Source: a virus
DNA length: 32,938 bases
Reading direction: 5' to 3' (one strand)
IMG/VR virus record: IMGVR_UViG_3300045988_147139
The notes beneath the pieces were generated by a model, which was given only the letters and a program-made list of their open reading frames with translations, made no database searches and had not been told where the DNA came from. This document shows, piece after piece, positions 7,144 to 32,938 of the stretch; the first letter of the stretch is position 1, and every line of letters starts with the position of its first letter. The translations under genes and the position numbers were made by a program.

Positions 7144-7168
7144 TAAAAAAAGCAGCCGTAAAGCTGCT
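7144..7168 (-). terminator. Intrinsic terminator T3 upstream of the scaffold gene
   Basis: The - strand RNA reads AGCAGC-uuuacg-GCUGCU followed by UUUUUUUAUGCCC. Confidence 0.45.
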
Positions 7169-7328: not shown

Positions 7329-7357
7329 TTGACTATTTTCCCACTTTGCTATATAAT
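7329..7357 (+). promoter_or_regulatory. Near-consensus sigma-70/SigA promoter for the KTSC gene
   Basis: TTGACT (7329-7334), 17-nt spacer, TATAAT (7352-7357). AAAGGAGG and ATG 7388 follow. Confidence 0.75.
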
Positions 7358-7387
7358 TAAGTTATTACATAGGAAAGGAGGTTTTTT

Positions 7388-7591
7388 ATGCGTAGAAAAG
7401 CTGTTGATTCTTCTCGTATAAATAGCGTTGGTTGGGAAAACAATGTGCTTGAAGTTGAGTTTAAAAATGGTGCGGTATATCAGTACTATGATGTAAGTGA
7501 AGCTGAATATCGTGCATTCATTTCCTCATCTTCGTTAGGTCATGAAATTTCGGTAATTGACAAAACACATAGCTATTCACGAGTTTGTTAA
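7388..7591 (+). CDS. KTSC-domain protein (67 aa), opposite-strand moron
   Basis: SSRINSVGWENNVLEVEFKNGAVYQYYDVSEAEYRAFISSSSLG fits the KTSC domain pattern. It has a strong RBS, its own promoter and its own terminator. Confidence 0.7.
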   Translation: MRRKAVDSSRINSVGWENNVLEVEFKNGAVYQYYDVSEAEYRAFISSSSLGHEISVIDKTHSYSRVC

Positions 7592-8062: not shown

Positions 8063-9718
8063 TTATTCGCAATATTTTGCGTAATTATATTTCTTTGAAG
8101 CCAAGATGTGGGCTTCATTTTGAGAATACCCTTTTTCCATATAGCGGAGTTCGGCATATTCGTGTTTCAGTAAAACGATATCCTGTTCCTTGAAATCGCC
8201 GTTTATAAGCCGCTGCCAAGACTGAGCCATATCATAAGAGGGGTCAAATCGCTTATGCCCTGTCAAGAGGTCGTGTTCGGTGATAAAAACGTGATTTTTT
8301 ATTTTGTCAATTTTATCACGGCTTATTCCTGTTGCCGCAGATATCTTCTGCGTATCTGTTGTCATATGGCGAACAGATTCATAATATTGAACAGCGTGCT
8401 TTTCGGCTTCCTTGCTGTAAGGGTTTAATGCTCCGCTTATTACACCTGTATTCATTATACCACTTCTGCTGCCATTGTCAAGCCCTGATTTCGCCTTCCT
8501 CTCCGCCCAAACCGTCTTGCTCGACTTGCTCCGATCATACCCGTAAACCTGAGTGCGGTCATTGTGCTGTTTAAGCCCCGTCTCCTTGCAGTAAGCCCTG
8601 TATTTCTCCCTCTGATTGCGAAGCCGTAAAGAAGCTTTCTGCAAGCCCTCAGTGTCGCCTGTTTCCTGTAACATCATACATTCACGCTTGGCGGCTCTGA
8701 TGCCCCGCTCCATAGCTCTCTGCTGCTGAAACTGCATATACCGCCTGTCATTTTCCTCTTTGGGATAGGGGAAATATCGCTGAAAATTGATGCCCGGAAC
8801 AAACGGATATTGAACGTGCCCGCAGTTGATACCGAGTATTCCGTCAGGCTGTCCGTAACTCGTCTGAGAAAAAGGCGTAAAATGTATTTTATTTCCTGCG
8901 CCGTCTGTGGTTACTCCGCTTGTGCCGTCACGGGAATAAATTTTTCCTTGGTCAATGGCACATTTGGGACGTGCGCCCAGATGTGAGCTTAGTTCGATAA
9001 GGTTTATCCCGTACTCATCACAACGTGCATTCTGCGCAGCCCTCGCCGTGTTTCCCAGCGTTGACCGCATATCCATCATAACGTAAGCCTCGGGAGACCA
9101 TTCACGCCCACGCTTGTCAACGAAAGCGGGAATGCCCTTTTGAGCAAGCTCACGTATGGTTTTCCTTGTTGCTTCCTGCAAGGACATCTGCCCCGATACA
9201 GCCTTTGCCGCACCCTTGCCCATAATGTCAAGAGCGCCCTGCCTGCCCTCGGAAGTGTCACGGTAAATGGCATTGACCGCATTTACATACGCCGAACCTG
9301 CCTTGTACCCCATGACCGTGTTCACAAGATTAAGGTCACTCGCCGCCTGCCGCTGAAACGCCTTGGCCGCATTCATGGCTGAGGTTTCCGCAGGAATGTC
9401 CGAGAAATATTCCGACAGCCCCGCAGCATTCGCCGCCTGCACCGCATTGTCAAGATATCCTATCTCAGTCTCAGCCGCCGTCAGAACAGCGTCCATAGCC
9501 TGACCGCCCTCGACCTCGGAATATCCCGCAATGATAGCCGCCGCCCGCTTGTCGAAACGTCCTGCCCTCGCCAGCTGCCTTATCCGCCATTTTGACGTGT
9601 CGGAAATATCTCCGTCCCGTGAAAGCTGCGCCGCAATTTCCCGCAGGATATCATCTTCCATGTCCAACAGTACCCGCACCAGAGGCGCCGAGAGCTCGTC
9701 ATACTGTTCCCTTGTCAT
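8063..9718 (-). CDS. Minor head / head-morphogenesis protein (SPP1 gp7 / MuF class) with ~130-aa C-terminal extension
   Basis: 551 aa. Its start overlaps the portal stop. The core region (...MDMRSTLGNTARAAQNARCDEYGINLIELSSHLGARPKCAIDQGKIYS...) is typical of minor capsid proteins that follow portals. The extra C-terminal module ends ...LLKHEYAELRYMEKGYSQNEAHILASKKYNYAKYCE. Confidence 0.7.
   Translation of the reverse strand: MTREQYDELSAPLVRVLLDMEDDILREIAAQLSRDGDISDTSKWRIRQLARAGRFDKRAAAIIAGYSEVEGGQAMDAVLTAAETEIGYLDNAVQAANAAGLSEYFSDIPAETSAMNAAKAFQRQAASDLNLVNTVMGYKAGSAYVNAVNAIYRDTSEGRQGALDIMGKGAAKAVSGQMSLQEATRKTIRELAQKGIPAFVDKRGREWSPEAYVMMDMRSTLGNTARAAQNARCDEYGINLIELSSHLGARPKCAIDQGKIYSRDGTSGVTTDGAGNKIHFTPFSQTSYGQPDGILGINCGHVQYPFVPGINFQRYFPYPKEENDRRYMQFQQQRAMERGIRAAKRECMMLQETGDTEGLQKASLRLRNQREKYRAYCKETGLKQHNDRTQVYGYDRSKSSKTVWAERKAKSGLDNGSRSGIMNTGVISGALNPYSKEAEKHAVQYYESVRHMTTDTQKISAATGISRDKIDKIKNHVFITEHDLLTGHKRFDPSYDMAQSWQRLINGDFKEQDIVLLKHEYAELRYMEKGYSQNEAHILASKKYNYAKYCE
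8454..8481 (-). promoter_or_regulatory. Strong internal promoter inside the minor head gene
   Basis: On the - strand: TTGACA (8481-8476), 16-nt spacer ending TGG (extended -10), TATAAT (8459-8454). Confidence 0.7.
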
Positions 9719-11361: not shown

Positions 11362-11391
11362 TTTTCATCACTCCCTGTCTAAAAAAGGCAT

Positions 11392-11418
11392 AAAAAAACC
11401 GCCTGATCTCTCAGACGG
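11392..11418 (-). terminator. Intrinsic terminator between the 130-aa moron and the portal gene
   Basis: The - strand RNA reads CCGUCUGA-gaga-UCAGGCGG followed by UUUUUUUAUGCC. The single G:U pair would be a C:A mismatch on the + strand. Confidence 0.55.
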
Positions 11419-11479
11419 TAACAAGCGGACGGAGTTGCACCGCCCATTCACATAATTGTGCGTGTTCCTCTCAACACTT

Positions 11480-11872
11480 CTACTTGTTATTATGATAATA
11501 CCACGTTTTTAATACTTTGTCAACCATTTTATTTTCTTTGCCGGAAGGAGCAAAATCACCCTTTTCATTATGATAATACCCCTTGTGGGTGTGTGGCAAG
11601 GTTGGAATACCGTTAATAATATGAGTTTTGTCTAAATCTATCTGCTTAAAATGCTTGTTCTTTTTGTTGTAATAAGTGATATATTTAGGCTTATTATCAT
11701 AATTTAACGTTACATATATTCGACCTTTAGTCATAGTCTCCAATGGTGGAGTAGCACTGCCGCTGTTTGTCCTGACAAATTTTATATTTCCACTTTGCAA
11801 AATGGTTGTGTATTCGGTTCCGTATCGCTTGCCTTTATCGCTCACCCCGCTTGCACTTCCTCTACCGCCCAC
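11480..11872 (-). CDS. Hypothetical 130-aa protein, AT-rich moron (Gly/Ser linker-like N-terminus, HTHKGYYHNEKG motif)
   Basis: GTG 11872 lies 9 nt after GGGAGG and overlaps the DUF4417 stop by 11 nt. The ORF is visibly more AT-rich than its flanks and has its own terminator. Confidence 0.6.
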   Translation of the reverse strand: MGGRGSASGVSDKGKRYGTEYTTILQSGNIKFVRTNSGSATPPLETMTKGRIYVTLNYDNKPKYITYYNKKNKHFKQIDLDKTHIINGIPTLPHTHKGYYHNEKGDFAPSGKENKMVDKVLKTWYYHNNK

Positions 11873-12494
11873 AGGTCATCGCCTCCCTGAATTTATCCTG
11901 AAAAGATTTGATGTGAATTATATTCCCTCTGCATTCATCGGGAACAGAGCCGTAAAAGATTATTTTGGACGGACAGAGCCGTTCGCACATAGCCTCATAG
12001 CCCCTCAGAAATGCCGCTTTCGCTGCCCTGCTGTTCTGCGTTCCCACCGATGAAACGGCAACAACGCCGCCCGCAGGTTCGCCGTCAAAACACCACTCAA
12101 AGGATCTTTCATCGCTCCAGCAAATTGTGGGAATGACCTTTATCCCGAAGGACTGCCAGTAAGCCCCAAGCCAGTGCTTGCGGTAATGGTTATATATCTG
12201 CATAGCCACAGGAAAATCGGTGTACAGCGAAAAATCAGGAGACAGCACACAGGCAAACTGTGAAAGCGTGTTTATATAATCCCTCGGTCTGTTCCATACC
12301 CTGAAAAACTGGTAATCGTCAAGGAAGAAATGCACCGCTTTTTCTGCCCTGTCCTTTGCAGTTGCGGCATAATTAAAGCCGATAAAGCCGGAGAAATAGA
12401 CTTTATCAGCCTTTATAACAGGTATATCATATCTCCCGACAACATCGGGCGTGAACTTTTCAAGATTTTCATACCGCTGTTTTTCGGGTATCAT
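11862..12494 (-). CDS. DUF4417-like protein (210 aa)
   Basis: The motifs HFFLDDYQFFRVWN, LSPDFSLYTDFP, QIYNHYRKHWLGAYWQ and GIKVIPTICW match my recollection of DUF4417. The start overlaps the terL stop. Confidence 0.6.
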   Translation of the reverse strand: MIPEKQRYENLEKFTPDVVGRYDIPVIKADKVYFSGFIGFNYAATAKDRAEKAVHFFLDDYQFFRVWNRPRDYINTLSQFACVLSPDFSLYTDFPVAMQIYNHYRKHWLGAYWQSFGIKVIPTICWSDERSFEWCFDGEPAGGVVAVSSVGTQNSRAAKAAFLRGYEAMCERLCPSKIIFYGSVPDECRGNIIHIKSFQDKFREAMTCGR

Positions 12495-13732
12495 AAACCT
12501 ATTGTCCTTTCCATCATATCGTTCATATACGGCTCCGTGCTGTATTCCTGCGCATCGAGATTATCAATGTTTGTTGTGCCGTCGTCAAGGCGGACATCAG
12601 CCGTTTTGACCTTGCTATCCCACATAGCCTCTGAGAGCGCATCTATGGTCGATGTGCAGCCTTTAAGTATCTTGTACCGCCCTGCACCCATCATCACCGT
12701 GTAGAAACGTATGCGGTCGTTTATGGGACCCTTTCGGGCATTATGTATTTCCACACACAAATTTCTTTTCGCCGCATCTATGCGCATACCCTCGATGAGT
12801 GTCTGCTCTGCGCTATCGCAATATACATTGACCAGCGGAACGCCCCCGAGAATGAGCCTGCATTCTGCGATAAACCCCGCAAAATCAGCATATAGCTGCT
12901 CAGGTGTCGCAGCATCTTTCCTGCGGTAATCGTGAACAGTCACCATATCCCGAAGCCCACGGGTGAAGCCCGTGCAGTTGAATGCGTGAGCCGACTTGCC
13001 GCCGCCGAAATCAACCCCGACAGTGGCAAGCACGAGGTCAAGTCCGTCAAGGCTGTCAATGATAAAGTCATTCGGACGGTCGTTGAAGCGGCGATATATA
13101 ACGCCCTCAGCATTCACCCATTTGCCAAGCACATAACGGTCATAATATATCGTTCCCGCATATTCCGTTTTCAGATCACTTACAAATTTCGGGTCAAGGG
13201 TCGGATTGTCATCAAGAGTATATTTCTGACAGTAAATATCCGCATCACTGTCAAGGAATTTCTTGAACCAGTGCTGACGTCCCTCGGGATTGCACGTTCC
13301 GTCAAAACGGCTGTAAGGCTTGTCAAGACGTGATTTCAGCATATCAAAGACAGCCTCGTTCCACGTCACGACCTCATCGCCATAGCAGTATTTTACGGAC
13401 ATACCACGTATCTTGTCAACCGATGTTTTTTTGTCAGCTCCGAGGCAGTAGCACCGTTCACCGAAGAGCATAGCTGTGTTGTCAGTCGTGCGGATTGGCT
13501 TCACCAGTTCATCGCCCCACAGCTCCTGCAAGGGGTATATGACATTTCGGAGCAGTGTGCCCTGAGTATGCCCCAGAAGCAGCACAGCCCCCTCACGTCC
13601 CGCCACACTGCGAATGCGTTTGGGTATGGCGTAATAGTCCATATACGTCTTTCCCGAACGTGTCGCACCTGTCTTGACGTTCCATCGGTGCGTGGCATTC
13701 CGGAAGTATTCCTTTTGCATATCTGTGAACAT
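12491..13732 (-). CDS. terL: Terminase large subunit (PBSX/XtmB type, headful packaging)
   Basis: 413 aa. A Walker A-like KTGATRSGKT lies near the N-terminus, and a nuclease-half motif occurs near VDFGGG...DSAEQ. It directly follows the small subunit (ATGA overlap). Confidence 0.9.
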   Translation of the reverse strand: MFTDMQKEYFRNATHRWNVKTGATRSGKTYMDYYAIPKRIRSVAGREGAVLLLGHTQGTLLRNVIYPLQELWGDELVKPIRTTDNTAMLFGERCYCLGADKKTSVDKIRGMSVKYCYGDEVVTWNEAVFDMLKSRLDKPYSRFDGTCNPEGRQHWFKKFLDSDADIYCQKYTLDDNPTLDPKFVSDLKTEYAGTIYYDRYVLGKWVNAEGVIYRRFNDRPNDFIIDSLDGLDLVLATVGVDFGGGKSAHAFNCTGFTRGLRDMVTVHDYRRKDAATPEQLYADFAGFIAECRLILGGVPLVNVYCDSAEQTLIEGMRIDAAKRNLCVEIHNARKGPINDRIRFYTVMMGAGRYKILKGCTSTIDALSEAMWDSKVKTADVRLDDGTTNIDNLDAQEYSTEPYMNDMMERTIGL

Positions 13733-14160
13733 CAGAAGCCCCCTTCAATTTTGCCGAGGACTTCATCAAGCTTGGAGAGTGCCGCACTGTCTCCCTCGGA
13801 AGAAGCCTTTTCCTTAAGCTTAAGCTCACGCTTTTTAAGGGCAAGCTCCTCGTGCGCAATATCCTTGCCGAGTATCTGTATCACCCTGTCAAACGCCTTT
13901 GTGTCACCCTGAGCGGCACTCAGGAACATAGACATAACAAGCACCATCTCGTTGTCCATATCATCGGGAGAAACACCGAGAGCTTCAAGCTGCTCCCTGT
14001 CATTGGCAGCAGCGGGAAGTTCAAGCAGAGCCTTCATCTTCTGCTTCATGTCCTTTTTGCGCCGCCTTGCCTCACCCGAGGCCTTGCCGCCTTTTTGAGT
14101 GATTTCTCGGAGTTCACTCGGAGTTCGTTCGGAATTTGATATTAGATTTTTTTCATTCAC
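13732..14160 (-). CDS. terS: Putative terminase small subunit (142 aa)
   Basis: GTG 14160 follows AGGTGG. The N-terminus is basic (KGGKASGEARRRKKDMKQK). It is coupled to terL. Confidence 0.6.
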   Translation of the reverse strand: MNEKNLISNSERTPSELREITQKGGKASGEARRRKKDMKQKMKALLELPAAANDREQLEALGVSPDDMDNEMVLVMSMFLSAAQGDTKAFDRVIQILGKDIAHEELALKKRELKLKEKASSEGDSAALSKLDEVLGKIEGGF

Positions 14161-14185
14161 GGGTCACCACCTGCCGAAAAATAGG

Positions 14186-14224
14186 ATAAAAAAATCCGCT
14201 TACAGCCTTTAACCGTAAGCGGAT
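14186..14224 (-). terminator. Strong intrinsic terminator in the leader of the late operon
   Basis: A perfect 10-bp stem ATCCGCTTAC/GTAAGCGGAT with an 11-nt loop is followed by U7 on the - strand. It lies 25 nt upstream of the terS start. Confidence 0.75.
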
Positions 14225-14243
14225 ATAAAAATTCACTATATCC

Positions 14244-14272
14244 ATTTTAGCACAAACATAGTGACATGTCAA
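14244..14272 (-). promoter_or_regulatory. Late-operon promoter (PR'-like)
   Basis: On the - strand: TTGACA (14272-14267), 17-nt spacer ending TGC, TAAAAT (14249-14244). It overlaps the stop codon of the 139-aa regulator gene. The dyad GGATATA-N9-TATATCC (14243-14221) spans the predicted start site. Confidence 0.65.
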
Positions 14273-14688
14273 GCATTTTTTGAAATTTTCACAAGAGCCT
14301 TGCCGTGAAGCCTATGTACGTGCCGCACACTGATTCCCATTTTGGCAGCAATCTGTCCCCAAGACTTGCAGTAAAGATAATGCAGGTTAAGCACTTCCCG
14401 CTGCCGTTCATCTTTCACAAGGTAAATGAGCCTGCCCGCCGCACAATACGGGTTTGAAAGTTCTGCTTTGCATTTGTCCGCTTGGGTTTCATAATCAGAT
14501 ACCTCGCAATATGATTCTTCAACGGAATTTCCGTTGCGCTCATATTCTGCGCCTGTGCTGTTATATCGCACTGTTTTGCCGTTCGTCAGCCTGTTTTCAT
14601 AACGCCTGTGCTTGTTACGGGCTTTGAGATACTTGCTCCCTGCCTCTCGTGCATCATTCAGCACCGCCTTGACCTCCTGCACAGTCAA
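14269..14688 (-). CDS. Late-gene regulator, sigma-70 region-4-like HTH (ArpU/RinA/DUF1492 class), 139 aa
   Basis: The C-terminus ERQREVLNLHYLYCKSWGQIAAKMGISVRHVHRLHGKALVKI resembles a sigma region 4 HTH. It is the last gene before terS. The TTG start lies behind AAGGAG. Confidence 0.65.
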   Translation of the reverse strand: MTVQEVKAVLNDAREAGSKYLKARNKHRRYENRLTNGKTVRYNSTGAEYERNGNSVEESYCEVSDYETQADKCKAELSNPYCAAGRLIYLVKDERQREVLNLHYLYCKSWGQIAAKMGISVRHVHRLHGKALVKISKNA

Positions 14689-15712: not shown

Positions 15713-16169
15713 TGTTATACCTCCTATCTCTATTCGCAGACCGAAACATCATAAGCAGCATTTCAAGCGCAGGACGTTTCCTGTCTGATCGCTTACCTTT
15801 TTTGACGGATTTTAAACCGTTTTCACACGCAACATAAACACCGACACGATACGGAATTTCGTTTTTTATCTTTTCATAAACATCAGGCGGCATAACGTAA
15901 TAATTAAAGTCGCCTATAAAGTTATGTCCGTTCTTGGAATGAAAATCCTCAACAGACGATTTAATCTCATAGCAGTAAAAATCACCTTTTTCTATTCCCG
16001 AAATAGTATTGTTTACGGGAACAAACCGCATATAATCAATTCTGACTTGATTTAATGTACCATAGTCGAATGTTACTTCCTTTGACATATAAATGCGTGG
16101 GTCGTTGTGCGGATTTATATGTAATTCAAGCAGGAGCGACAACGCTGCTGTTGTTGCTTTCCTATCCAT
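15702..16169 (-). CDS. PD-(D/E)XK nuclease-like protein (MmcB-like)
   Basis: RIDYMRF...FYCYEIKSSVEDFHSKNGHNFIGDFNYYVMP fits a D...E-x-K nuclease core as in MmcB-type proteins. Confidence 0.5.
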   Translation of the reverse strand: MDRKATTAALSLLLELHINPHNDPRIYMSKEVTFDYGTLNQVRIDYMRFVPVNNTISGIEKGDFYCYEIKSSVEDFHSKNGHNFIGDFNYYVMPPDVYEKIKNEIPYRVGVYVACENGLKSVKKGKRSDRKRPALEMLLMMFRSANRDRRYNNDT

Positions 16170-16350
16170 TGTCAGCCCTCCTGTTTTTAAAATACCTAAT
16201 AATTATTTTTGCAGATTCTTTCGGGTGACGGAAAATGAAATGCACGATTGACTTACGCATTACCACATTACTGTCGCCTTCATAGGTTTTTCCGCAAATC
16301 TTGCACCGTTGCGTGACCATGAAAGATATGCTTCCGTTGAATTTAATCAT
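16162..16350 (-). CDS. Hypothetical 62-aa protein
   Basis: ATG 16350 overlaps the end of the upstream gene. The longer track ORF start (16449) lies inside the upstream gene. Confidence 0.4.
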   Translation of the reverse strand: MIKFNGSISFMVTQRCKICGKTYEGDSNVVMRKSIVHFIFRHPKESAKIIIRYFKNRRADNG

Positions 16351-16672
16351 CTTCCTCACCGTCCTCCAGCATATCGGAAAAATCATCAGATGAATTATCC
16401 TCTGTCTCAGATGCCTCAGAGTTATCTTTAATCTGATCCTGGAAAACAAGACGCATCAGCACGCCGATAAATTCTATGGGGTCAACATTGTCTCCGGATA
16501 TCTGAGTGTAAAATGCCTTGAACGCATAAAACAGGTCTGTGAGTATCGGTGTTGCATTGCCGTCCTCAGGGATATCAATTTTCCCAACCGCATTGAGTTC
16601 ACGGTCCTCTTCGTCCTTAAAAGCGTCAGAAATCGCTGCTAAAAATATAATTTTGTTTGCCATTCTATTCAT
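16343..16672 (-). CDS. Hypothetical acidic protein (109 aa) with poly-acidic C-terminal tail
   Basis: ATG 16672 lies behind AGGAGG. The C-terminus reads DNSEASETEDNSSDDFSDMLEDGEEDD. Confidence 0.55.
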   Translation of the reverse strand: MNRMANKIIFLAAISDAFKDEEDRELNAVGKIDIPEDGNATPILTDLFYAFKAFYTQISGDNVDPIEFIGVLMRLVFQDQIKDNSEASETEDNSSDDFSDMLEDGEEDD

Positions 16673-16687
16673 TTTATTTTCCTCCTG

Positions 16688-16798
16688 TTATTTTCTGTTA
16701 TCAATTTTTTCTGAATCTCCCGCAGCCAAGATACACGCAACTGCAACAATGGTTATAATACCGATTATCCAGCCTATAAGCAGACCTGCGAGAAACAT
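16688..16798 (-). CDS. 36-aa single-pass membrane peptide (below the ORF-track cutoff)
   Basis: The TGATG overlap joins it to the upstream stop. The translation MFLAGLLIGWIIGIITIVAVACILAAGDSEKIDNRK is followed directly by the RBS of the next gene. Confidence 0.45.
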   Translation of the reverse strand: MFLAGLLIGWIIGIITIVAVACILAAGDSEKIDNRK

Positions 16799-17103
16799 CA
16801 TTCCTCACCGCCTTTTATCGTTCTGAGCAGCTCCATAAGCATTGTCCTTCGGTCACCGTAATTCATTCTGCGTTCCTCAGCCTTCGCCTTTTCGATATCC
16901 ACCTTGCGGATTTCACGATTGCAGTTCGCAATCTCACTGTTTATAGCATCAGCAATGATTTCATTGCGTTTAACCGCATCAGCCGCAGCCTGCAGCGCCT
17001 CTGCGTCCTGGCGGAATATTTCATCGTCGCCGTCATTGGTAAAATGACCCTCTGCTTCTTTTTTCAGGTCTTCAAGATGACGTATGATTTGATTTGCGTT
17101 CAT
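16798..17103 (-). CDS. Hypothetical coiled-coil protein (101 aa)
   Basis: ATG 17103 lies behind AGGAGG. The sequence is charged and helical. Confidence 0.5.
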   Translation of the reverse strand: MNANQIIRHLEDLKKEAEGHFTNDGDDEIFRQDAEALQAAADAVKRNEIIADAINSEIANCNREIRKVDIEKAKAEERRMNYGDRRTMLMELLRTIKGGEE

Positions 17104-17201: not shown

Positions 17202-17672
17202 TCATTTTTGTGGGCTTGTCGTTGATTTGGCTGCACTCATGGCATTCAGCTTCTGCAAAACAGTCTTTTCGGTGACGCTTTCGCTTCTTGCCGCAGATAT
17301 CACAGCAAGCGCAGTCCTCAGTGCCTCGGTAACATCTTCGGGAAGTTTCAGCGGAGCCTTGCAGAGAGCTGCGCAAAGGCTCTCAGTCGCCTTGATAGCC
17401 TCCTGATGCTTTCGGCACGCATCGACATAAAGAAATCGCTGCTTGATATCCTCGTTGTACTGAGACAGGAGGCGCTGCTTTTCGGCAGCAGCCTGCTCCA
17501 GACTTATGGCTTTGCTTTTGAACATCGCATATACGCCGCAAAGTCGTGCAAAATATCTGTACTCAGCCGCAGGAAACTCAGAGCAATCAATTACCTGACC
17601 CTTGCAGCCTGCATTATAGCAGTCGGTCTCCAGCTGCTTGAAAACAGCCGGATCCGAAAAACATTTCTTCAA
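17202..17672 (-). CDS. Hypothetical protein (156 aa)
   Basis: TTG 17672 lies 6 nt after GGAGG and 2 nt after the upstream stop. The track start at 17702 would overlap the upstream gene by 29 nt. Confidence 0.5.
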   Translation of the reverse strand: MKKCFSDPAVFKQLETDCYNAGCKGQVIDCSEFPAAEYRYFARLCGVYAMFKSKAISLEQAAAEKQRLLSQYNEDIKQRFLYVDACRKHQEAIKATESLCAALCKAPLKLPEDVTEALRTALAVISAARSESVTEKTVLQKLNAMSAAKSTTSPQK

Positions 17673-17673
17673 T

Positions 17674-18396
17674 TTACACCTCCGGTTTATTTTTGATTGC
17701 ATGATTTACGATCAGGTCAAGGTCAAATGACGGCTGCTTGGAAGGCTGTGCCTTTGCGCCGTCCTCCTCTATCCACTTGACTATCGTGTTGTAGTGATTA
17801 CGATACGGCTTCTTGCCGCTGGATTTTATGTATTCACTGATTTTATCAACGTACGCATTGACTATCGTGTCTCCGTATTTATCGCAAAGCGATTTGTATT
17901 GTTCCGTTGTCAGTCGTACGTTGTTGTGTGTGCCCCTTGCGGGCACCTTACTACTAACACTACTACGTAGTACAGTATCAGTATCAGTATCAGTTACAGT
18001 ATCAGTATCAGTTACAGTATCAGTATCACTATCCATTTGTATTTTTTTGTATGCGTTTGTATCGTTTTGAATACATTTGTATTCATTTGTATTCAAATGT
18101 ATATCTTCTTTGTCGCTGACAACAGGCTTTGAAGTGTTGTCGCTATCTTTTGCCCAGCGCTTTTTGATATTTTCAGCACGCTTCTGGCATACTTCGTTGT
18201 ATCGCTGTAAATCGCCTTCAAGCTGATTGGCAATAAAGGAAAATGCCATTGCTGCCATACCATCGAGGGTAGGCAGCTCTTTTGTATTGACATATTCCAG
18301 AATAGCTTTAAACAGCTTGCCTGCATCTTCATCGGAAAGTATCTGCACCTGCCTGATGTACTCCGCATAAAGGATAAAGCTCTTCTTTTTCGGCAT
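17674..18396 (-). CDS. Replisome organizer / replication initiator-like protein with internal repeat (ori) region
   Basis: The N-terminus FILYAEYIRQVQILSDEDAGKLFKAILEY and the C-terminus NVRLTTEQYKSLCDKYG...YIKSSGKKPYRNHYNTIVKWI resemble phage replisome-organizer/DnaD-like proteins. A central low-complexity linker is encoded by DNA repeats. Confidence 0.6.
   Translation of the reverse strand: MPKKKSFILYAEYIRQVQILSDEDAGKLFKAILEYVNTKELPTLDGMAAMAFSFIANQLEGDLQRYNEVCQKRAENIKKRWAKDSDNTSKPVVSDKEDIHLNTNEYKCIQNDTNAYKKIQMDSDTDTVTDTDTVTDTDTDTVLRSSVSSKVPARGTHNNVRLTTEQYKSLCDKYGDTIVNAYVDKISEYIKSSGKKPYRNHYNTIVKWIEEDGAKAQPSKQPSFDLDLIVNHAIKNKPEV
17961..18032. repeat. 12-bp palindrome plus 18-bp tandem repeats (hexamer CAGTAT based)
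   Basis: TACTACGTAGTA (17961-17972) is followed by cagtat and then three 18-bp units: two copies of cagtatcagtatcagtta and a variant cagtatcagtatcactat (17973-18032). The repeats encode DSDTDTVTDTDTVTDTDTDTV. Confidence 0.85.
18031..18100. repeat. Seven helically phased 10-bp repeats (ATnnnTTTGT), candidate origin iterons / bent DNA
   Basis: The units are atccatttgt atttttttgt atgcgtttgt atcgttttga atacatttgt attcatttgt attcaaatgt, with an exact 10-bp period. Confidence 0.8.
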
Positions 18397-23213: not shown

Positions 23214-23242
23214 TTGACAAATCCTCCTAAATGCCTTATAAT
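23214..23242 (+). promoter_or_regulatory. Exact consensus sigma-70 promoter (antisense to the early operon)
   Basis: TTGACA (23214-23219), 17 nt, TATAAT (23237-23242). It overlaps the RBS region of the PAPS-reductase-like gene on the other strand. Confidence 0.75.
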
Positions 23243-23248
23243 AAGGCT

Positions 23249-23300
23249 GTCTTATTTATCTTTTTGCCGTGTACGGTTGCCGCCGTCACGGCTTTTCTTT
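23249..23300 (+). ncRNA. Candidate ~50-nt antisense RNA (promoter plus immediate terminator)
   Basis: The predicted start is ~23249. The hairpin GCCGTGTACGG-ttgccg-CCGTCACGGC (23266-23292; 10 bp, one bulge) is followed by TTTTCTTT. No ORF is present. Confidence 0.5.
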
Positions 23301-23451
23301 ACCCCTGCACAGGGCATTCGGAGAGCGACAGAATACTTGCCGCACCAACAAACTGCTGAGCGCATTCATTCGCCATCTCAAAGCTGTGTGCCTGAATGCG
23401 GCAGCTGTACTTCCTGCCCTCATAGGCGTATCTAAGGATATACCATTTCAT
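23299..23451 (-). CDS. Hypothetical 50-aa protein (below the ORF-track cutoff)
   Basis: ATG 23451 lies 2 nt after the upstream stop, with GGAGGTG just upstream. The translation is MKWYILRYAYEGRKYSCRIQAHSFEMANECAQQFVGAASILSLSECPVQG. Confidence 0.45.
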   Translation of the reverse strand: MKWYILRYAYEGRKYSCRIQAHSFEMANECAQQFVGAASILSLSECPVQG

Positions 23452-23453
23452 TT

Positions 23454-23636
23454 TTACACCTCCTTGCAAACATCTGTGATAACCGCCTCGACCAGATCGT
23501 CAAGACTGTTTTCAGCGAAAATCCTGTCCTTTGCCTTAGCTTCGGCAGCTTCTCTCGACCCAGCCGATACGCTGTACACATCGTTGAATGCGCCGCCCTT
23601 GAACCTGAGGTGGACATATACGTTGTATGTGCTCAT
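23454..23636 (-). CDS. Hypothetical 60-aa protein
   Basis: It shares a TAATG overlap with the upstream gene. The translation begins MSTYNVYVHLRFKGGAFNDVYSVSAGSREAAEAKAKDRIF... Confidence 0.5.
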   Translation of the reverse strand: MSTYNVYVHLRFKGGAFNDVYSVSAGSREAAEAKAKDRIFAENSLDDLVEAVITDVCKEV

Positions 23637-23800
23637 TACTTTACACCTGCCTTTTCCTTAGCCGCTTCAAGCAGCTTCTTGTCGATGATACGCTTGAGGC
23701 ATTTTGCCATAATCTCAGGGCTTGGCTCGTTCACGAGTATGATCCTGCGTCCGCTTTCGGACATCATTTCTCTGATGATGGGCTTTGTGGTTTCATTCAT
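23636..23800 (-). CDS. Hypothetical 54-aa protein (below the ORF-track cutoff)
   Basis: ATG 23800 lies behind AAGGAG. The translation is MNETTKPIIREMMSESGRRIILVNEPSPEIMAKCLKRIIDKKLLEAAKEKAGVK. Confidence 0.5.
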   Translation of the reverse strand: MNETTKPIIREMMSESGRRIILVNEPSPEIMAKCLKRIIDKKLLEAAKEKAGVK

Positions 23801-23835
23801 ATTTATTTCTCCTTCTTATAATATTTAGACGTGTT

Positions 23836-23864
23836 AATATTTTATAAATTGTGCAGGTTGACAA
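23836..23864 (-). promoter_or_regulatory. Weak candidate promoter for the 23800 gene block
   Basis: On the - strand: TTGTCA (23864-23859), 17 nt, AATATT (23841-23836). It lies back-to-back with the + strand promoter at 23909. Confidence 0.25.
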
Positions 23865-23908
23865 ACAACTCCCAAAGTTTTTCGTAAATACCATATATAG
23901 CTATTTTA

Positions 23909-23937
23909 TTGACAATAATTACTATATGTAGTATAAT
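23909..23937 (+). promoter_or_regulatory. Exact consensus sigma-70 promoter for the 48-aa ORF
   Basis: TTGACA (23909-23914), 17 nt, TATAAT (23932-23937). Confidence 0.8.
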
Positions 23938-23971
23938 TAGGCTATAAACTAATATGAAGGGAGGAATGTTC

Positions 23972-24118
23972 ATGTCAAACACTAAGCAGACAAGTGCGTC
24001 TGTCGCTTCAAAAGCATCGACTATTCTTAGAGATGGTCGATACAGCAAGACTTCTAAGTCAGTTGCCGGAAGCGCTCTTTCTCAGACCAAGACATCTTCT
24101 AAGAGCAGCAAGAAGTAA
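23972..24118 (+). CDS. 48-aa Ser/Lys/Thr-rich protein (below the ORF-track cutoff)
   Basis: ATG 23972 lies 7 nt after GGGAGG. The translation is MSNTKQTSASVASKASTILRDGRYSKTSKSVAGSALSQTKTSSKSSKK. It has its own promoter and terminator. Confidence 0.6.
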   Translation: MSNTKQTSASVASKASTILRDGRYSKTSKSVAGSALSQTKTSSKSSKK

Positions 24119-24130
24119 GCTTGGCAAAAT

Positions 24131-24385
24131 TTAGTTTTCTTTGGCGGAGTGCGAATGTACTTCGCCGCTTTTTTTGAACAGTACCTGTACCGGAACATCT
24201 GAAAAGTATTTTTCATGTATTGCAAGAGCTTCATCAAGTGTGAAGCCTGAACGCCCCGTCAGTTTTTTGCTCAGGTAGTCAGCGCTTATCCCTGCTGCTT
24301 TCGCTATGTCTTTCTTCTTTATTTGCCTGCAGGCAATTTCTACTTCCAGTGCCGGATAAGCGGGTTTAACGGTTCTGTATGGCAA
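24131..24385 (-). CDS. Cro/XRE-like HTH protein (84 aa)
   Basis: It uses a TTG start. IKKKDIAKAAGISADYLSKKLTGRSGFTLDEALAI is a typical small HTH. Confidence 0.65.
   Translation of the reverse strand: MPYRTVKPAYPALEVEIACRQIKKKDIAKAAGISADYLSKKLTGRSGFTLDEALAIHEKYFSDVPVQVLFKKSGEVHSHSAKEN
24143..24175 (+). terminator. Intrinsic terminator of the 48-aa ORF transcript
   Basis: GGCGGAGT-gcgaatgt-ACTTCGCC is followed by GCTTTTTTT. It is embedded in the 3' end of the convergent HTH gene. Confidence 0.65.
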
Positions 24386-24402
24386 CTTCTCCTCATCTCC
24401 TT

Positions 24403-24422
24403 CCTGTCCTGATTTCGGGACA
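24403..24422. promoter_or_regulatory. 20-bp palindrome between two early genes (operator or RNA hairpin)
   Basis: CTGTCCTGATTTCGGGACAG has 6-bp perfect outer arms. Confidence 0.35.
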
Positions 24423-24432
24423 GATAATAAGT

Positions 24433-24621
24433 TTACTGCTCAATGATCTCCATATGGTCATAAGCATATTTGACCATATCATAAACGGTCTGAGCCTTGG
24501 TGTTATTGGTGATCTGCATGACCTCCTCGACCATTTTTGCAGCTTCGGGGTAAGTCCTCAGCTGGGCAAACTCGATAGGCGCTTCCTTTGGCGCTCTTTT
24601 GACTTTGAATTTCTCTTCCAT
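24433..24621 (-). CDS. Hypothetical 62-aa protein
   Basis: ATG 24621 lies behind AAGGAG. The translation begins MEEKFKVKRAPKEAPIEFAQLRTYPEAAKMVEEVMQI... Confidence 0.5.
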   Translation of the reverse strand: MEEKFKVKRAPKEAPIEFAQLRTYPEAAKMVEEVMQITNNTKAQTVYDMVKYAYDHMEIIEQ

Positions 24622-24633
24622 GTTTTCAACTCC

Positions 24634-24662
24634 TTGACAACCCACCTCTTACGCTGTATAAT
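24634..24662 (+). promoter_or_regulatory. Exact consensus sigma-70 promoter for the 63-aa ORF
   Basis: TTGACA (24634-24639), 17 nt, TATAAT (24657-24662). Confidence 0.8.
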
Positions 24663-24694
24663 GATGACAATTTACAGTGAAGGGGGGGATATAA

Positions 24695-24886
24695 ATGAGT
24701 TTCTGTCCTTTTATGAGTAATGGTAAGGACATAAAAAATTGGTGTGGCTGTATAACCTCTTGTGAGCTTCGTATTAACAATAGTTGCGCATTGAAGATAT
24801 TGGCTCAAAAGGCGTTATTTGATGTCAAGCATCAAAAGTCACAGATTGAAGAGAGCAAGCAGAGCGTTGCAGATAGCAGCCGTTAA
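24695..24886 (+). CDS. 63-aa Cys-rich protein
   Basis: ATG 24695 lies 6 nt after GAAGGGGGGG. MSFCPFMSNGKDIKNWCGCITSCELRINNSCALKIL... contains five Cys in the first 31 residues. Confidence 0.55.
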   Translation: MSFCPFMSNGKDIKNWCGCITSCELRINNSCALKILAQKALFDVKHQKSQIEESKQSVADSSR

Positions 24887-25000
24887 TCTGTCAAGCCCCT
24901 CAGCGGTATGCTCCCTTTTCGCCTCCTCTGAGAGCATTTTTATATGTTCCCAGAGGAGATTTTTTGCTTCCGTGGCTGTAAAGTTAGATTTGTTCTCCAT
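24839..25000 (-). CDS. Hypothetical 53-aa protein
   Basis: ATG 25000 lies behind GGGAAGTGAG. Its 3' end overlaps the convergent 63-aa ORF by 48 nt, so one of the two may not be real. Confidence 0.4.
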   Translation of the reverse strand: MENKSNFTATEAKNLLWEHIKMLSEEAKREHTAEGLDRLTAAICNALLALFNL

Positions 25001-25052
25001 TTTCTCACTTCCCTTCATTTTTGTCTGTCCTAATTTTCGCCCAAATGCGGTG

Positions 25053-25271
25053 CTATACTGATATAGAAAGGATTTCGTTGATAGCTGAAACAACCTTACC
25101 GCTTGTTATATCCCCCACAAGAATTTTGTACAGGTTGGAACTGTCAACATAGATGCCGGGATATCGGCGTTTGATTTCAGATATTAGCCATTCCTGCCTT
25201 CGATTTTGCTCCATAAGAGCAAGCTTGACCTTTTTACCGTAATTGCATAATGGCTTTTTGTATTCTGACAA
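25053..25271 (-). CDS. Small XRE-like HTH protein (72 aa), first gene of the early transcript
   Basis: TTG 25271 lies 7 nt after GGAGG (an alternative ATG is at 25286). KVKLALMEQNRRQEWLISEIKRRYPGIYVDSSNLYKILVG resembles an HTH. Confidence 0.55.
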   Translation of the reverse strand: MSEYKKPLCNYGKKVKLALMEQNRRQEWLISEIKRRYPGIYVDSSNLYKILVGDITSGKVVSAINEILSISV

Positions 25272-25303
25272 ATTAACACCTCCCATATTGTAAAATATCA
25301 CGA

Positions 25304-25332
25304 TTGACAGTTACGGAAAAATGTAATATAAT
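25304..25332 (+). promoter_or_regulatory. Exact consensus sigma-70 promoter directed at the HTH-like ORF and integrase
   Basis: TTGACA (25304-25309), 17 nt, TATAAT (25327-25332). Confidence 0.8.
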
Positions 25333-25431
25333 ATAGTTGCAAGATATTATTTTTACGTTCTGCCGTAACTGTGATTTTATTATATTACGTTTAGGCGTAA
25401 ATGTCAATAGTAAAATTACGGATTGGCATAA
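25311..25431. promoter_or_regulatory. Four operator-like dyads TTACG-N6-CGTAA
   Basis: The four sites are 25311-25326 (TTACG-N6-TGTAA), 25353-25368 (perfect), 25385-25400 (perfect) and 25416-25431 (TTACG-N6-CATAA). The first fills the spacer of the + promoter and the third fills the spacer of the - promoter. Confidence 0.6.
25379..25407 (-). promoter_or_regulatory. Exact consensus sigma-70 promoter for the early (- strand) operon, face-to-face with 25304
   Basis: On the - strand: TTGACA (25407-25402), 17 nt, TATAAT (25384-25379). Confidence 0.8.
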
Positions 25432-25465
25432 CTTTGTCAGTGTGTATAAAAGCAGGTGCATATTT

Positions 25466-25645
25466 ATGTCTAAATTGTATGAAACTATCGAACAACTTTG
25501 CAAAAACAAAGGCGTTAATATAACGAAAATGTGTAAAGATGCTGGAACATCTCTCGGAGCGCAGGAGAATGTGGTACATTCACCATTCTTTCAATGTGAA
25601 TTATACCATATCCTCCTCCAAATGTCAAGGAGTGATAACAAATAT
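25466..25645 (+). CDS. XRE-like HTH N-terminal fragment ORF, open in frame into the integrase
   Basis: ATG 25466 lies 7 nt after AGGTG. MSKLYETIEQLCKNKGVNITKMCKDAGTSLG looks like helices 1-2 and the turn of an XRE HTH, after which the similarity is lost. There is no stop codon before the integrase ATG. Confidence 0.35.
25540..25640. other. Candidate attP region
   Basis: The dyads GAATGT-ggt-ACATTC (25567-25581) and AGAATG...CATTCT (25566-25589) and the repeated AATGTG (25568, 25593) lie where the HTH similarity ends, just upstream of int. Confidence 0.25.
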
Positions 25646-27189: not shown

Positions 27190-27247
27190 AATAAAAAACC
27201 GCCGCCGATAAGAGCTCCACAGCTCTTACCGACGGCGAATTTTTTAT
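27190..27247. terminator. Bidirectional intrinsic terminator between the integrase and endolysin genes
   Basis: A 17-bp stem (two mismatches), CCGCCGCCGATAAGAGCT / AGCTCTTACCGACGGCG, is flanked by an A-run upstream and a T-run downstream. Confidence 0.7.
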
Positions 27248-32023: not shown

Positions 32024-32938
32024 TTAACCTCCGCTGGCGGTTTTAGCCCGCTTGTTTTCCTGCGCAACAACCTTAGCCACATACTTGCCGTCCAGATCAA
32101 CCACCTTGTAAACAGGGCTGCCCGACGAGGCAGATGTGCGCTTGACCGACGCAGATGTGTCCTGACTGTCCGCCGCCGTTGTGTTTGCCGCCGATGTGTT
32201 GGCGGAAATGCTCGCTGAAGAGTTGGCAGCAGATACATTCGCCGCCGCAGCGTCAACGTAATTGCCGTCAAAAACGTCCTTCATGGACTGCTCCCAGTTA
32301 GCCTTGAACGCTTCCATAAAGCTGTCGCCAAACAGCGTGCCTGCGTCAGTACCTAACTTCTCGAACTCGTCTGAGTTTTCCGTCACCATGTTGGCAATGA
32401 TGTTGCTTACGCCCTCATCGTCCTTGTACAGTGACTTGATTTTTGAGAGCTTCTTGGGGTCTTTCAGCAGCTGCGTTGCATAGTCCAGCGCCGCCTCCGG
32501 GTCTTGTTTGAGCAGTTCGTTTATAAGGCTGTCAGGCACATTCTTTTCATACAGCTCGGCGATTTTTGATGTCAGCTTTTTCTTGGCAGCCAGCTTTTTC
32601 TCAAATCCGCTAAGGTCTATCTTGTTTGACTTGGTTTTAGCCCCCGTCCGCTTGTCCGTTTCCTCAGAGCTGTTGAAGATATCGCCACTGCTGCCTTTCA
32701 GACTGCTTGCCAGACTGTCACGGGATTTTACAACGCTGTCATAGACTTTTTCAAGAGTGTCCCGCTGCTTTTTGGCAGCGGTTTCAGCCTCTTTCGCTGC
32801 CTTATCGTCGGTGCTTTTCTGCTCTTTCAGCAGTTTAAGGTTATAGTCCTTGTACACCTCAGAATTGTGGTCAAGGGTCTCGATAAATGCCCTCTCCTGC
32901 TCCAGCAGCCAGCTGTCGTCATAGCCCTTTTCCAGCTG
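32024..32938 (-). CDS. Tape measure protein, C-terminal part (continuation of 2122..1 across the circular junction)
   Basis: The frame ...QLEKGYDDSWLLEQERAFIETLDHNSEVYKDYNLKLL... is continuous with the ORF at the window start. Track ORF 32024..32857 is only its tail end. Confidence 0.85.
   Translation of the reverse strand, partial: QLEKGYDDSWLLEQERAFIETLDHNSEVYKDYNLKLLKEQKSTDDKAAKEAETAAKKQRDTLEKVYDSVVKSRDSLASSLKGSSGDIFNSSEETDKRTGAKTKSNKIDLSGFEKKLAAKKKLTSKIAELYEKNVPDSLINELLKQDPEAALDYATQLLKDPKKLSKIKSLYKDDEGVSNIIANMVTENSDEFEKLGTDAGTLFGDSFMEAFKANWEQSMKDVFDGNYVDAAAANVSAANSSASISANTSAANTTAADSQDTSASVKRTSASSGSPVYKVVDLDGKYVAKVVAQENKRAKTASGG
32884..32938. repeat. Terminal overlap of a circular assembly (copy 2)
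   Basis: Identical to 1-55. Confidence 0.9.

Follow-up and report, generated by a model that had tools for sequence, protein, structure and literature searches.

The window, the whole 32,938-nt stretch of DNA analyzed here, represents a complete circular phage genome of ~32.9 kb. The tape-measure ORF is open over both of its ends (positions 1-60 and 32880-32938) with an overlap of 18 residues, and the window is therefore circularly closed and complete. The host is a gut Firmicute of the Ruminococcus/Huintestinicola group, and a near-identity DNA search of a phage collection returned no match to the window. An early operon of ~9 kb runs on the minus strand from ~23213 to 14269 and encodes RecT, an AAA ATPase, a PDDEXK nuclease, ERCC4, SSB, DUF6291 and YopX proteins and, as its last gene (14269-14688, minus strand), a 139-aa protein that combines an N-terminal helical hairpin with a sigma region 4 helix-turn-helix (HTH). 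No strong sense-strand terminator was found within this early operon. The late operon, also on the minus strand and ~20 kb long, extends from 14160 through terminase, portal, head and tail genes and across the window ends to the holin and amidase genes (27249). Its first gene (14160-13732, minus strand; 142 aa, phrog_2412) starts with the GTG at 14160, preceded by the ribosome-binding site (RBS) AGGTGGTGA at 14172-14164, lies immediately upstream of the large terminase gene (12491-13732), which it overlaps, and is by position only the putative small terminase gene (terS). A lysogeny switch region at 23214-25628 packs six perfect (12/12) sigmaA promoters, distributed over both strands, into 2.4 kb. 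These surround small ORFs, one of them with a Cro/CI-type HTH (24131-24385), and a serine recombinase gene, and the promoters at 25304 (plus strand) and 25407 (minus strand) sit within a 40-nt inverted repeat.

A near-consensus promoter, hereafter P1 (14272-14244, minus strand; TTGACA, N17, TGcTAAAAT), is located at the junction of the two operons. Its -35 hexamer (14272-14267) overlaps the TGA stop codon (14271-14269) of ORF 14269-14688, and its extended -10 element, TGCTAAAAT (14252-14244), follows a 17-nt spacer, amounting to an 11/12 consensus match plus the TG; the predicted start lies at ~14237/14236. The minus-strand sequence across the region reads GCTTGACATGTCACTATGTTTGTGCTAAAATGGATATAGTGAATTTTTATATCCGCTTACGGTTAAAGGCTGTAAGCGGATTTTTTTATCCTATTTTTCGGCAGGTGGTGACCCGTG. 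The promoter had been placed at precisely these coordinates in the original prediction, overlapping the regulator stop, and the placement holds. Sites matching the promoter consensus at 11/12 or better number 11 in the window, against a mean of 0.44 and a maximum of 4 in 200 dinucleotide shuffles, and this 25-fold enrichment indicates that such sites are real promoter signals.

Some 13 nt past the predicted P1 start begins an intrinsic terminator, T1 (14224-14188, minus strand), formed by a hairpin (14224-14194) and a run of seven T (14194-14188). A hairpin with U7 had been anticipated at this distance and is present, with a stem of 14 pairs (12 Watson-Crick and two G:U) rather than the ten originally counted. 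Folding of the hairpin region, proposed at the outset as a check, yields -19.7 kcal/mol for T1 on the minus strand versus -14.5 on the plus strand, and the segment 14243-14186 has a z-score of -4.85, with none of 200 shuffles folding as stably. The leader transcribed from P1 thus comprises ~13 nt before the hairpin, and the whole terminated RNA ~50 nt. Only 27 nt, RBS included, separate the T run from the GTG (the 25 nt given previously counts from 14186), leaving no room for another promoter between T1 and the first late gene. A transcription start inside the hairpin, which would allow escape from T1, is ruled out by the -10 element lying 20 nt upstream of the stem. Rfam searches at gathering score over the whole window and six class B loci (see below) gave no match, E-value searches around P1 and T1 (14100-14320) gave chance-level matches only, and the window has no conserved structured RNA between promoter and first terminator of the kind found in cis-acting antiterminators (put, EAR, canT, conAn2). 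The first 17 bases of the leader (AGTGAATTTTTATATCC, 14221-14237) form an 82% direct repeat of the terminator end (AGCGGATTTTTTTATCC, 14184-14200), and in some relatives (L002, L007, L008, L167) the hairpin is preceded by a further, partial copy of 14 nt (ATCCGCTTTTTTAA), which suggests that the leader may have originated by local duplication.

Together with T1, seven sense-strand terminators lie inside the late operon, each formed, on the transcribed strand, by a G+C-rich hairpin with a U run directly behind it. T2 (11419-11391) is a pre-portal hairpin with a U tail; T3 (7809-7778; 11 pairs, U6) falls between an 80-aa and a 65-aa ORF, with an RBS 3 nt further; T4a, T4b and T4c (7322-7294, 7284-7236 and 7168-7144) form a cluster upstream of the scaffold gene (start 7067), adjoining an inserted plus-strand ORF (7388-7591); and T5 (3118-3085; 12-13 pairs, U5) follows the major tail gene. 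All six of these minus-strand sites had been listed in the original prediction, and all six exist. Tails range from U5 to U7, and most stems fold at -10 to -22 kcal/mol. The accompanying claim that the stems are orientation-specific stands in part: U tails at T1-T5 are present exclusively on the minus strand, and T1, T2, T3, T4b and T5 fold more stably as minus-strand RNA, but folding of T4c is nearly equal on both strands (-9.8 on the minus versus -9.3 on the plus strand) and T4a folds better on the plus strand (-11.9, versus -8.6 on the minus strand). Several internal terminators flank inserted cassettes, namely a small RNA gene and the plus-strand ORF. The latter insertion (7329-7591, plus strand), beside the triple terminator cluster, comprises a 67-aa ORF (phrog_3292) with its own 11/12 promoter, in opposite orientation to the late operon around it. 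The operon ends, after the endolysin gene, at a terminator with 18 pairs, -32.6 kcal/mol and U6 (27193-27238, minus strand; stem 27238-27199). This terminator (27193-27247) is bidirectional, lies between the convergent endolysin and integrase genes, and has the longest stem in the genome. The terminators at 7144, 7236, 7294 and 11391, together with those of the distant phages L121, L292 and L294, have a common tail in which the T run is followed by ATGCC; this tail, TTTATGCC, occurs in five copies in the window versus 1.7 expected, a count reached by 2 of 100 shuffles.

Promoters that could restart transcription behind these terminators are scarce. No sigmaA-like promoter was found between 7144 and 7067, no minus-strand site of at least 10/12 occurs between 7150 and 1, and from 32938 to 27249 the minus strand offers a single 10/12 site (32754), in agreement with the original finding that no promoter follows the pre-scaffold and post-major-tail terminators. 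Terminators in series combined with this dearth of promoters after 7150 imply that the capsid, tail and lysis genes depend on polymerase having crossed four to seven terminators. The prediction that the late operon requires read-through of many strong terminators is thus upheld: the operon contains seven internal terminators, the last four of which have no strong promoter behind them. Two near-perfect putative minus-strand promoters are found inside coding regions further upstream, at 8454-8481 (12/12 plus TG, in the minor head gene) and at 13390-13419 (11/12, in the large terminase gene).

T2, listed in the original prediction among the terminators of the operon, turned out to belong to an SpF41-like small RNA (sRNA) gene (11523-11391, minus strand) consisting of a promoter, a cloverleaf RNA and T2 itself, followed by the portal RBS. 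The promoter (TTGACA-N17-TGgTATTAT, 11523-11495), overlooked earlier, lies inside the end of ORF 11480-11872, and its -10 element is encoded by W-Y-N codons, with positions A2 and T6 surviving amino-acid changes. The unit folds with a z-score of -4.64, and its 11391-11490 segment matches RF02435 (SpF41) at 42.7 bits (E 4.9e-6), under the gathering score of 52, whereas the homologous unit in L115 scores 61.7 bits and exceeds it. The cloverleaf has a T-loop-like arm, and ARAGORN finds no tRNA gene at this position. Across 80 viral loci, the unit nearly always directly follows a phrog_9479 gene, which in most cases has a DUF4417 nuclease gene next to it; as a rule the terminase genes come shortly after. 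The corresponding neighborhood in the window consists of ORFs 11480-11872 and 11862-12494. Variants include two tandem copies (L090, L095) and, at some loci, large insertions in the middle arm. The phage units resemble SpF41 in their closing stem, two to three internal hairpins including the T-loop-like arm, and built-in terminator, and differ from it in being tied to the DUF4417/phrog_9479 gene pair with the promoter embedded in the phrog_9479 gene.

The 139-aa protein encoded immediately upstream of P1 matches the Pfam model Sigma70_r4 (E=1e-8), and searches against Pfam, NCBIfam and PHROGs returned Sigma70_r4 or transcriptional regulator annotations only. In a family sample of 73 proteins, Sigma70_r4 is found in 47 and DUF1492 in 31, with weak matches to the ArpU model in three. 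The AlphaFold model (pLDDT 89) predicts helices at residues 3-35 and 55-89 and an HTH at 94-138, with no region 2, and PDB matches by sequence and by fold are confined to sigma region 3.2/4. We therefore rejected the possibility of a full sigma factor, as the region responsible for core binding and -10 recognition is absent. Matches in BFVD are full-length DUF1492/Sigma70_r4 phage proteins (TM up to 0.78), and hhalign relates the C-terminal domain to 80alpha RinA with 87% probability. A profile search retrieved 7815 cluster representatives, and among the best 150 nearly all measure 110-160 aa. The Ltr superfamily, in which LtrA corresponds to Sigma70_r4 and LtrB to DUF1492 and which also includes RinA, ArpU and LtrC (Quiles-Puchalt et al., PMC3753634), is characterized by small proteins whose genes close the early module, right in front of terS, and by Sigma70_r4/DUF1492 or RinA/ArpU homology, and all of these traits are present here. 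Judged by this homology and gene position, the 139-aa protein is a late regulator of the Ltr (RinA/ArpU/LtrA/LtrB) superfamily. No similarity to the Q families (lambda, 82 and 21 type) was detected in Pfam, NCBIfam, PHROGs or PDB sequence and fold searches, bearing out the original view that the protein in the Q position is an ArpU/RinA-class regulator.

To assess conservation of this layout, we compared 40 loci from viral and genome collections, with Ruminococcus and Huintestinicola as hosts. In class A loci, whose regulators share 56-99% identity, P1 is conserved throughout and the promoter, hairpin and T7 run are all kept. Hairpin changes are one-sided and preserve pairing only on the late-gene strand, as seen in L014, L015, L037 and L160, where the hairpin is retained via U:G or A:U changes. 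The P1 spacer is nearly invariant even among loci whose regulators share just 56-60% identity. In L010-L013 a 61-aa zinc-ribbon ORF has been inserted after the P1-type promoter, and the terminator still lies just before terS. The same insertion between promoter and pre-terS terminator (~4499-4684 in L010) occurs in L151 and L156; if the P1-type promoter is constitutive, the inserted ORF would be expressed from the prophage.

Class B loci, with regulators at 40-46% identity, have a promoter (TTGAAT-N18-TGaTATAAT) inside the coding end of the regulator gene, where the LN codons are kept, followed by a 75-nt hairpin from the predicted +1, an unrelated terminator and then terS. The base of this hairpin does not vary (AGCAAAG/CTTTGCT), and in its upper stem 10 of 21 pairs have undergone compensatory change. 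A motif search of viral contigs revealed no class B loci beyond the known set. In class B leaders (L016-L040 and L125; for example, 4446-4520 in L016) a tandem TATAAT TATAAT precedes the 75-nt hairpin, and in L038 an RBS directly follows the hairpin, without a terminator. More distant relatives, at 25-30% identity (phiRM10, L117, L122, L292, L293, L294), show the succession stop codon, direct repeats at ~-41 to -24, extended -10, leader of 25-100 nt, terminator and RBS. In several relatives the T run is separated from the start codon by just 12-25 nt.

To score terminators, a strict finder was applied up to 330 nt from the regulator stop; its background is 0.079 per 335 nt (0.36 per 335 nt for a more lenient finder). 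The strict finder identified a terminator at 19 of 24 loci, or 21 of 24 when counting two misses explained by an alternative fold, in L015 and in the window itself (T1). In ~14 of 18 divergent lineages, including that of staphylococcal phage 80alpha, the regulator gene is followed, in this order, by promoter, short leader, terminator and first late gene; the lineages L038, L039, L085 and L125 have no clear terminator. Regulator, promoter, leader and terminator are inherited together, while the type of terS downstream switches. The promoter-then-terminator unit proposed originally is hence real, and its position is conserved across divergent relatives.

Where on the DNA the regulator would bind is less apparent. 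The direct repeats that, in phiRM10, L085, L291-L294 and 80alpha, come right after the ltr stop codon and accompany a -35-less promoter are absent from the window: none was found in 14150-14450, which contains a full TTGACA instead. The dyad GGATATA-N9-TATATCC (14243-14221, minus strand), which had been suggested as a loading site, is present and spans the predicted start, but its left arm drifts among relatives (GGATATA, GGGTATA, GAGTATA) without compensating change and the arm spacing varies from N6 to N11, and the suggestion is not borne out. With its left arm upstream of the predicted start, the dyad is not a strong candidate for an RNA hairpin or operator. A better candidate appears to be the -35/spacer block, TTGACATGTCAC, placed where relatives have direct repeats. 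The putative regulator-binding block TTGACATGTCACTATGTT (14255-14272, minus strand) holds the palindrome TGACATGTCA and, at -30 to -23, ATGTCACT, which matches the direct repeat ATGTCAGT at the equivalent promoter position of phage phiRM10. No second copy of the palindrome exists in the window, ruling it out as an operator common to P1 and the switch region. A second -10-like hexamer, TATAGT (14240-14235, -3 to +3), lies within the dyad. As a Q-style pause signal it is a weak candidate, given that the arrangement TGYTAAAAT-N3-TATANT-GA also occurs at unrelated Firmicute promoters, in a search whose pattern itself required the hexamer.

The archetypal rinA-terS region, that of 80alpha, shares the order of elements seen in the window. 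In this region (L290, DQ517338, 1421-1610), two copies of TGGCAGT are followed by TAAAAT and, ~70 nt past it, by a terminator of 10 pairs and T6 (1536-1565), beyond which lie the published 5' end and terS. A terminator within this region was recognized in the RinA study, which mapped a triphosphate 5' end 24 nt upstream of terS and found that RinA requires DNA more than 155 bp upstream of that end, a need the authors find hard to explain (PMC3152322). The mapped end falls downstream of, and just past, the terminator, which therefore sits between the required upstream DNA and the mapped end. The layout of the window offers an explanation for the long-distance requirement, yet it conflicts with the mapped triphosphate end. 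In the literature searched, no paper links RinA, ArpU or DUF1492 to antitermination.

We propose that P1 and T1 act as the entry gate of the late operon. Host sigmaA polymerase would initiate at P1 and, without the regulator, halt at T1 after ~50 nt; T1 would likewise block read-through from the early operon. Once accumulated, the 139-aa protein would use its sigma-region-4 HTH to bind P1 at the -35/spacer block, join the initiating polymerase and remain attached, and the modified polymerase would cross T1 and the six further terminators, halting at the 18-bp-stem terminator past the lysis genes. Physically, this might work by a sigma-region-4 mimic sitting on the beta-flap at the RNA exit and impeding hairpin formation. 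A terminator placed after a regulated promoter must serve to stop early read-through and unmodified polymerase, not late transcription, which is the logic of lambda Q. The persistence of the layout despite unrelated sequence, and of regulator, promoter, leader and terminator as one module, argues for such a mechanism. So does the end of the operon at an 18-bp stem, since long-stem terminators are reported to resist the processive antitermination of conAn in plasmid pLS20 (PMC10325885). Against it, the 14-pair stem of T1 falls within the length range that resisted conAn, a conAn-specific result (PMC10325885), and P1 has a full -35 and no direct repeats, for which reason we infer, rather than observe, the binding site. 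On balance, processive antitermination in some form is probable in this phage, and there is about an even chance that the Ltr regulator itself, loading onto polymerase at P1, confers terminator resistance as lambda Q does. Internal terminators beside inserted cassettes could act as partial attenuators.

A conventional alternative, which we regard as unlikely, is that the regulator does no more than raise initiation at P1, whether as a surrogate for sigma region 4 or as a class II activator, and leaves the polymerase unmodified; T1 and the internal terminators would then be leaky attenuators that insulate the late genes from weak early read-through and set protein ratios. Terminators after the major tail gene and beside inserted cassettes are indeed common in phage late operons. 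Activation is also the published model for the Ltr superfamily, whose members are described as activators of promoters that lack a -35 and carry direct repeats (PMC3753634, PMC13123087), and promoters of this type, typical of activation, are those of the distant relatives described above. However, with 11/12 consensus matches and an extended -10, P1 should need no activator, seven strong terminators in series would leave almost no tail or lysis transcript, and a post-promoter terminator in ~14 of 18 lineages is hard to explain as mere insulation.

Antitermination might instead be conferred by another factor, be it an early protein, a host factor or a cis-acting RNA, leaving the 139-aa protein just to activate or time P1. 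At least six early ORFs have no match in the libraries searched, of which Pfam covered all; ORFs 16162-16449, 16343-16672, 16798-17103 and 17202-17702 gave no NCBIfam match, and 23269-23661 and 23842-24048 none in PHROGs. Cis-acting RNA antiterminators are moreover known from Firmicute mobile elements (canT of Tn916, PMC11658703; conAn of pLS20), and class B loci carry their conserved 75-nt 5' hairpin ahead of the terminator. Yet the ~13 nt preceding the T1 hairpin are too few for an RNA element, none of the ~45 ORFs scanned matched Q, NusG or another antiterminator family, and the inheritance of regulator, promoter and terminator as a single module speaks against an outside factor, making this explanation rather improbable. 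Least plausible of all, and quite improbable, is that P1-T1 constitutes a stand-alone sRNA gene, with T1 terminating the early operon and the true late promoter overlapping or following T1: the window does contain one promoter-RNA-terminator unit matching a known sRNA family (11523-11391), and the 80alpha triphosphate end lies just past a terminator, but the class A transcript is barely more than a terminator hairpin, the segment 14196-14178 has neither a repeat motif nor a -10-like hexamer that shows further matches besides A2 and T6, and the 12-25 nt between T run and start codon in several relatives leave little space.

Tentatively, and with odds somewhat short of even, the Ltr-family regulators RinA, ArpU, LtrA and LtrB may in general be promoter-loaded processive antiterminators, sigma-region-4 mimics riding the polymerase as functional analogues of lambda Q with an unrelated fold. 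This would account both for the terminator after the promoter in most lineages and for the need of RinA for DNA more than 155 bp upstream. In temperate phages of Firmicutes, packaging and lysis, as well as the transfer of toxin genes and pathogenicity islands, depend on late-gene control, which has been credited to "activators" of unexplained mechanism; the order promoter, terminator, late gene points to a testable alternative, a terminator-resistant polymerase. Such a regulator would be a fourth, unrelated protein solution to Q-type antitermination and would alter how gut phage genomes are interpreted with regard to late operons and cassette insertions.

Among known systems, the Ltr superfamily shares with the window the position of the regulator gene immediately upstream of terS, the Sigma70_r4/DUF1492 content, the homology of the C-terminal domain to RinA and an intrinsic terminator in the ltr-terS intergenic region (PMC3753634). 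The published order, however, is terminator and then an activator-dependent, -35-less promoter with direct repeats (PMC3753634), whereas in the window the terminator comes after a near-consensus sigmaA promoter that has no repeats; the 80alpha sequence, too, is compatible with repeats and then TAAAAT preceding the terminator. As in the conAn system of pLS20, terminators insulate a long operon that ends at a long-stem terminator (PMC10325885), and in both conAn and canT read-through needs an element-encoded factor (PMC8191782, PMC11658703), but these systems require a structured leader RNA, for which the leader in the window is too short. Any likeness to AlpA of Pseudomonas aeruginosa would be by mechanism only, the protein family and host being unrelated. 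AlpA attaches to DNA at the promoter and enables polymerase to read through a terminator located past the start site. This small HTH protein, once deemed an activator, is described as an antiterminator (PMC9998450). The lambda Q unit differs from the window in its protein, a helical hairpin with sigma region 4 being unlike any Q family, in its leader (194 nt in lambda versus ~50 nt), in its Q-binding element and sigma-dependent pause signal, which have only candidate counterparts here, and in its host, the present one being a Firmicute. Both nevertheless have the regulator as the last gene of the early operon and, directly after it, a strong, constitutive-looking host promoter; in both a terminator follows shortly past the start, before the first late gene, and beyond it stretches a long late operon with internal terminators and a lack of internal promoters (in the window, of strong ones after 7150).
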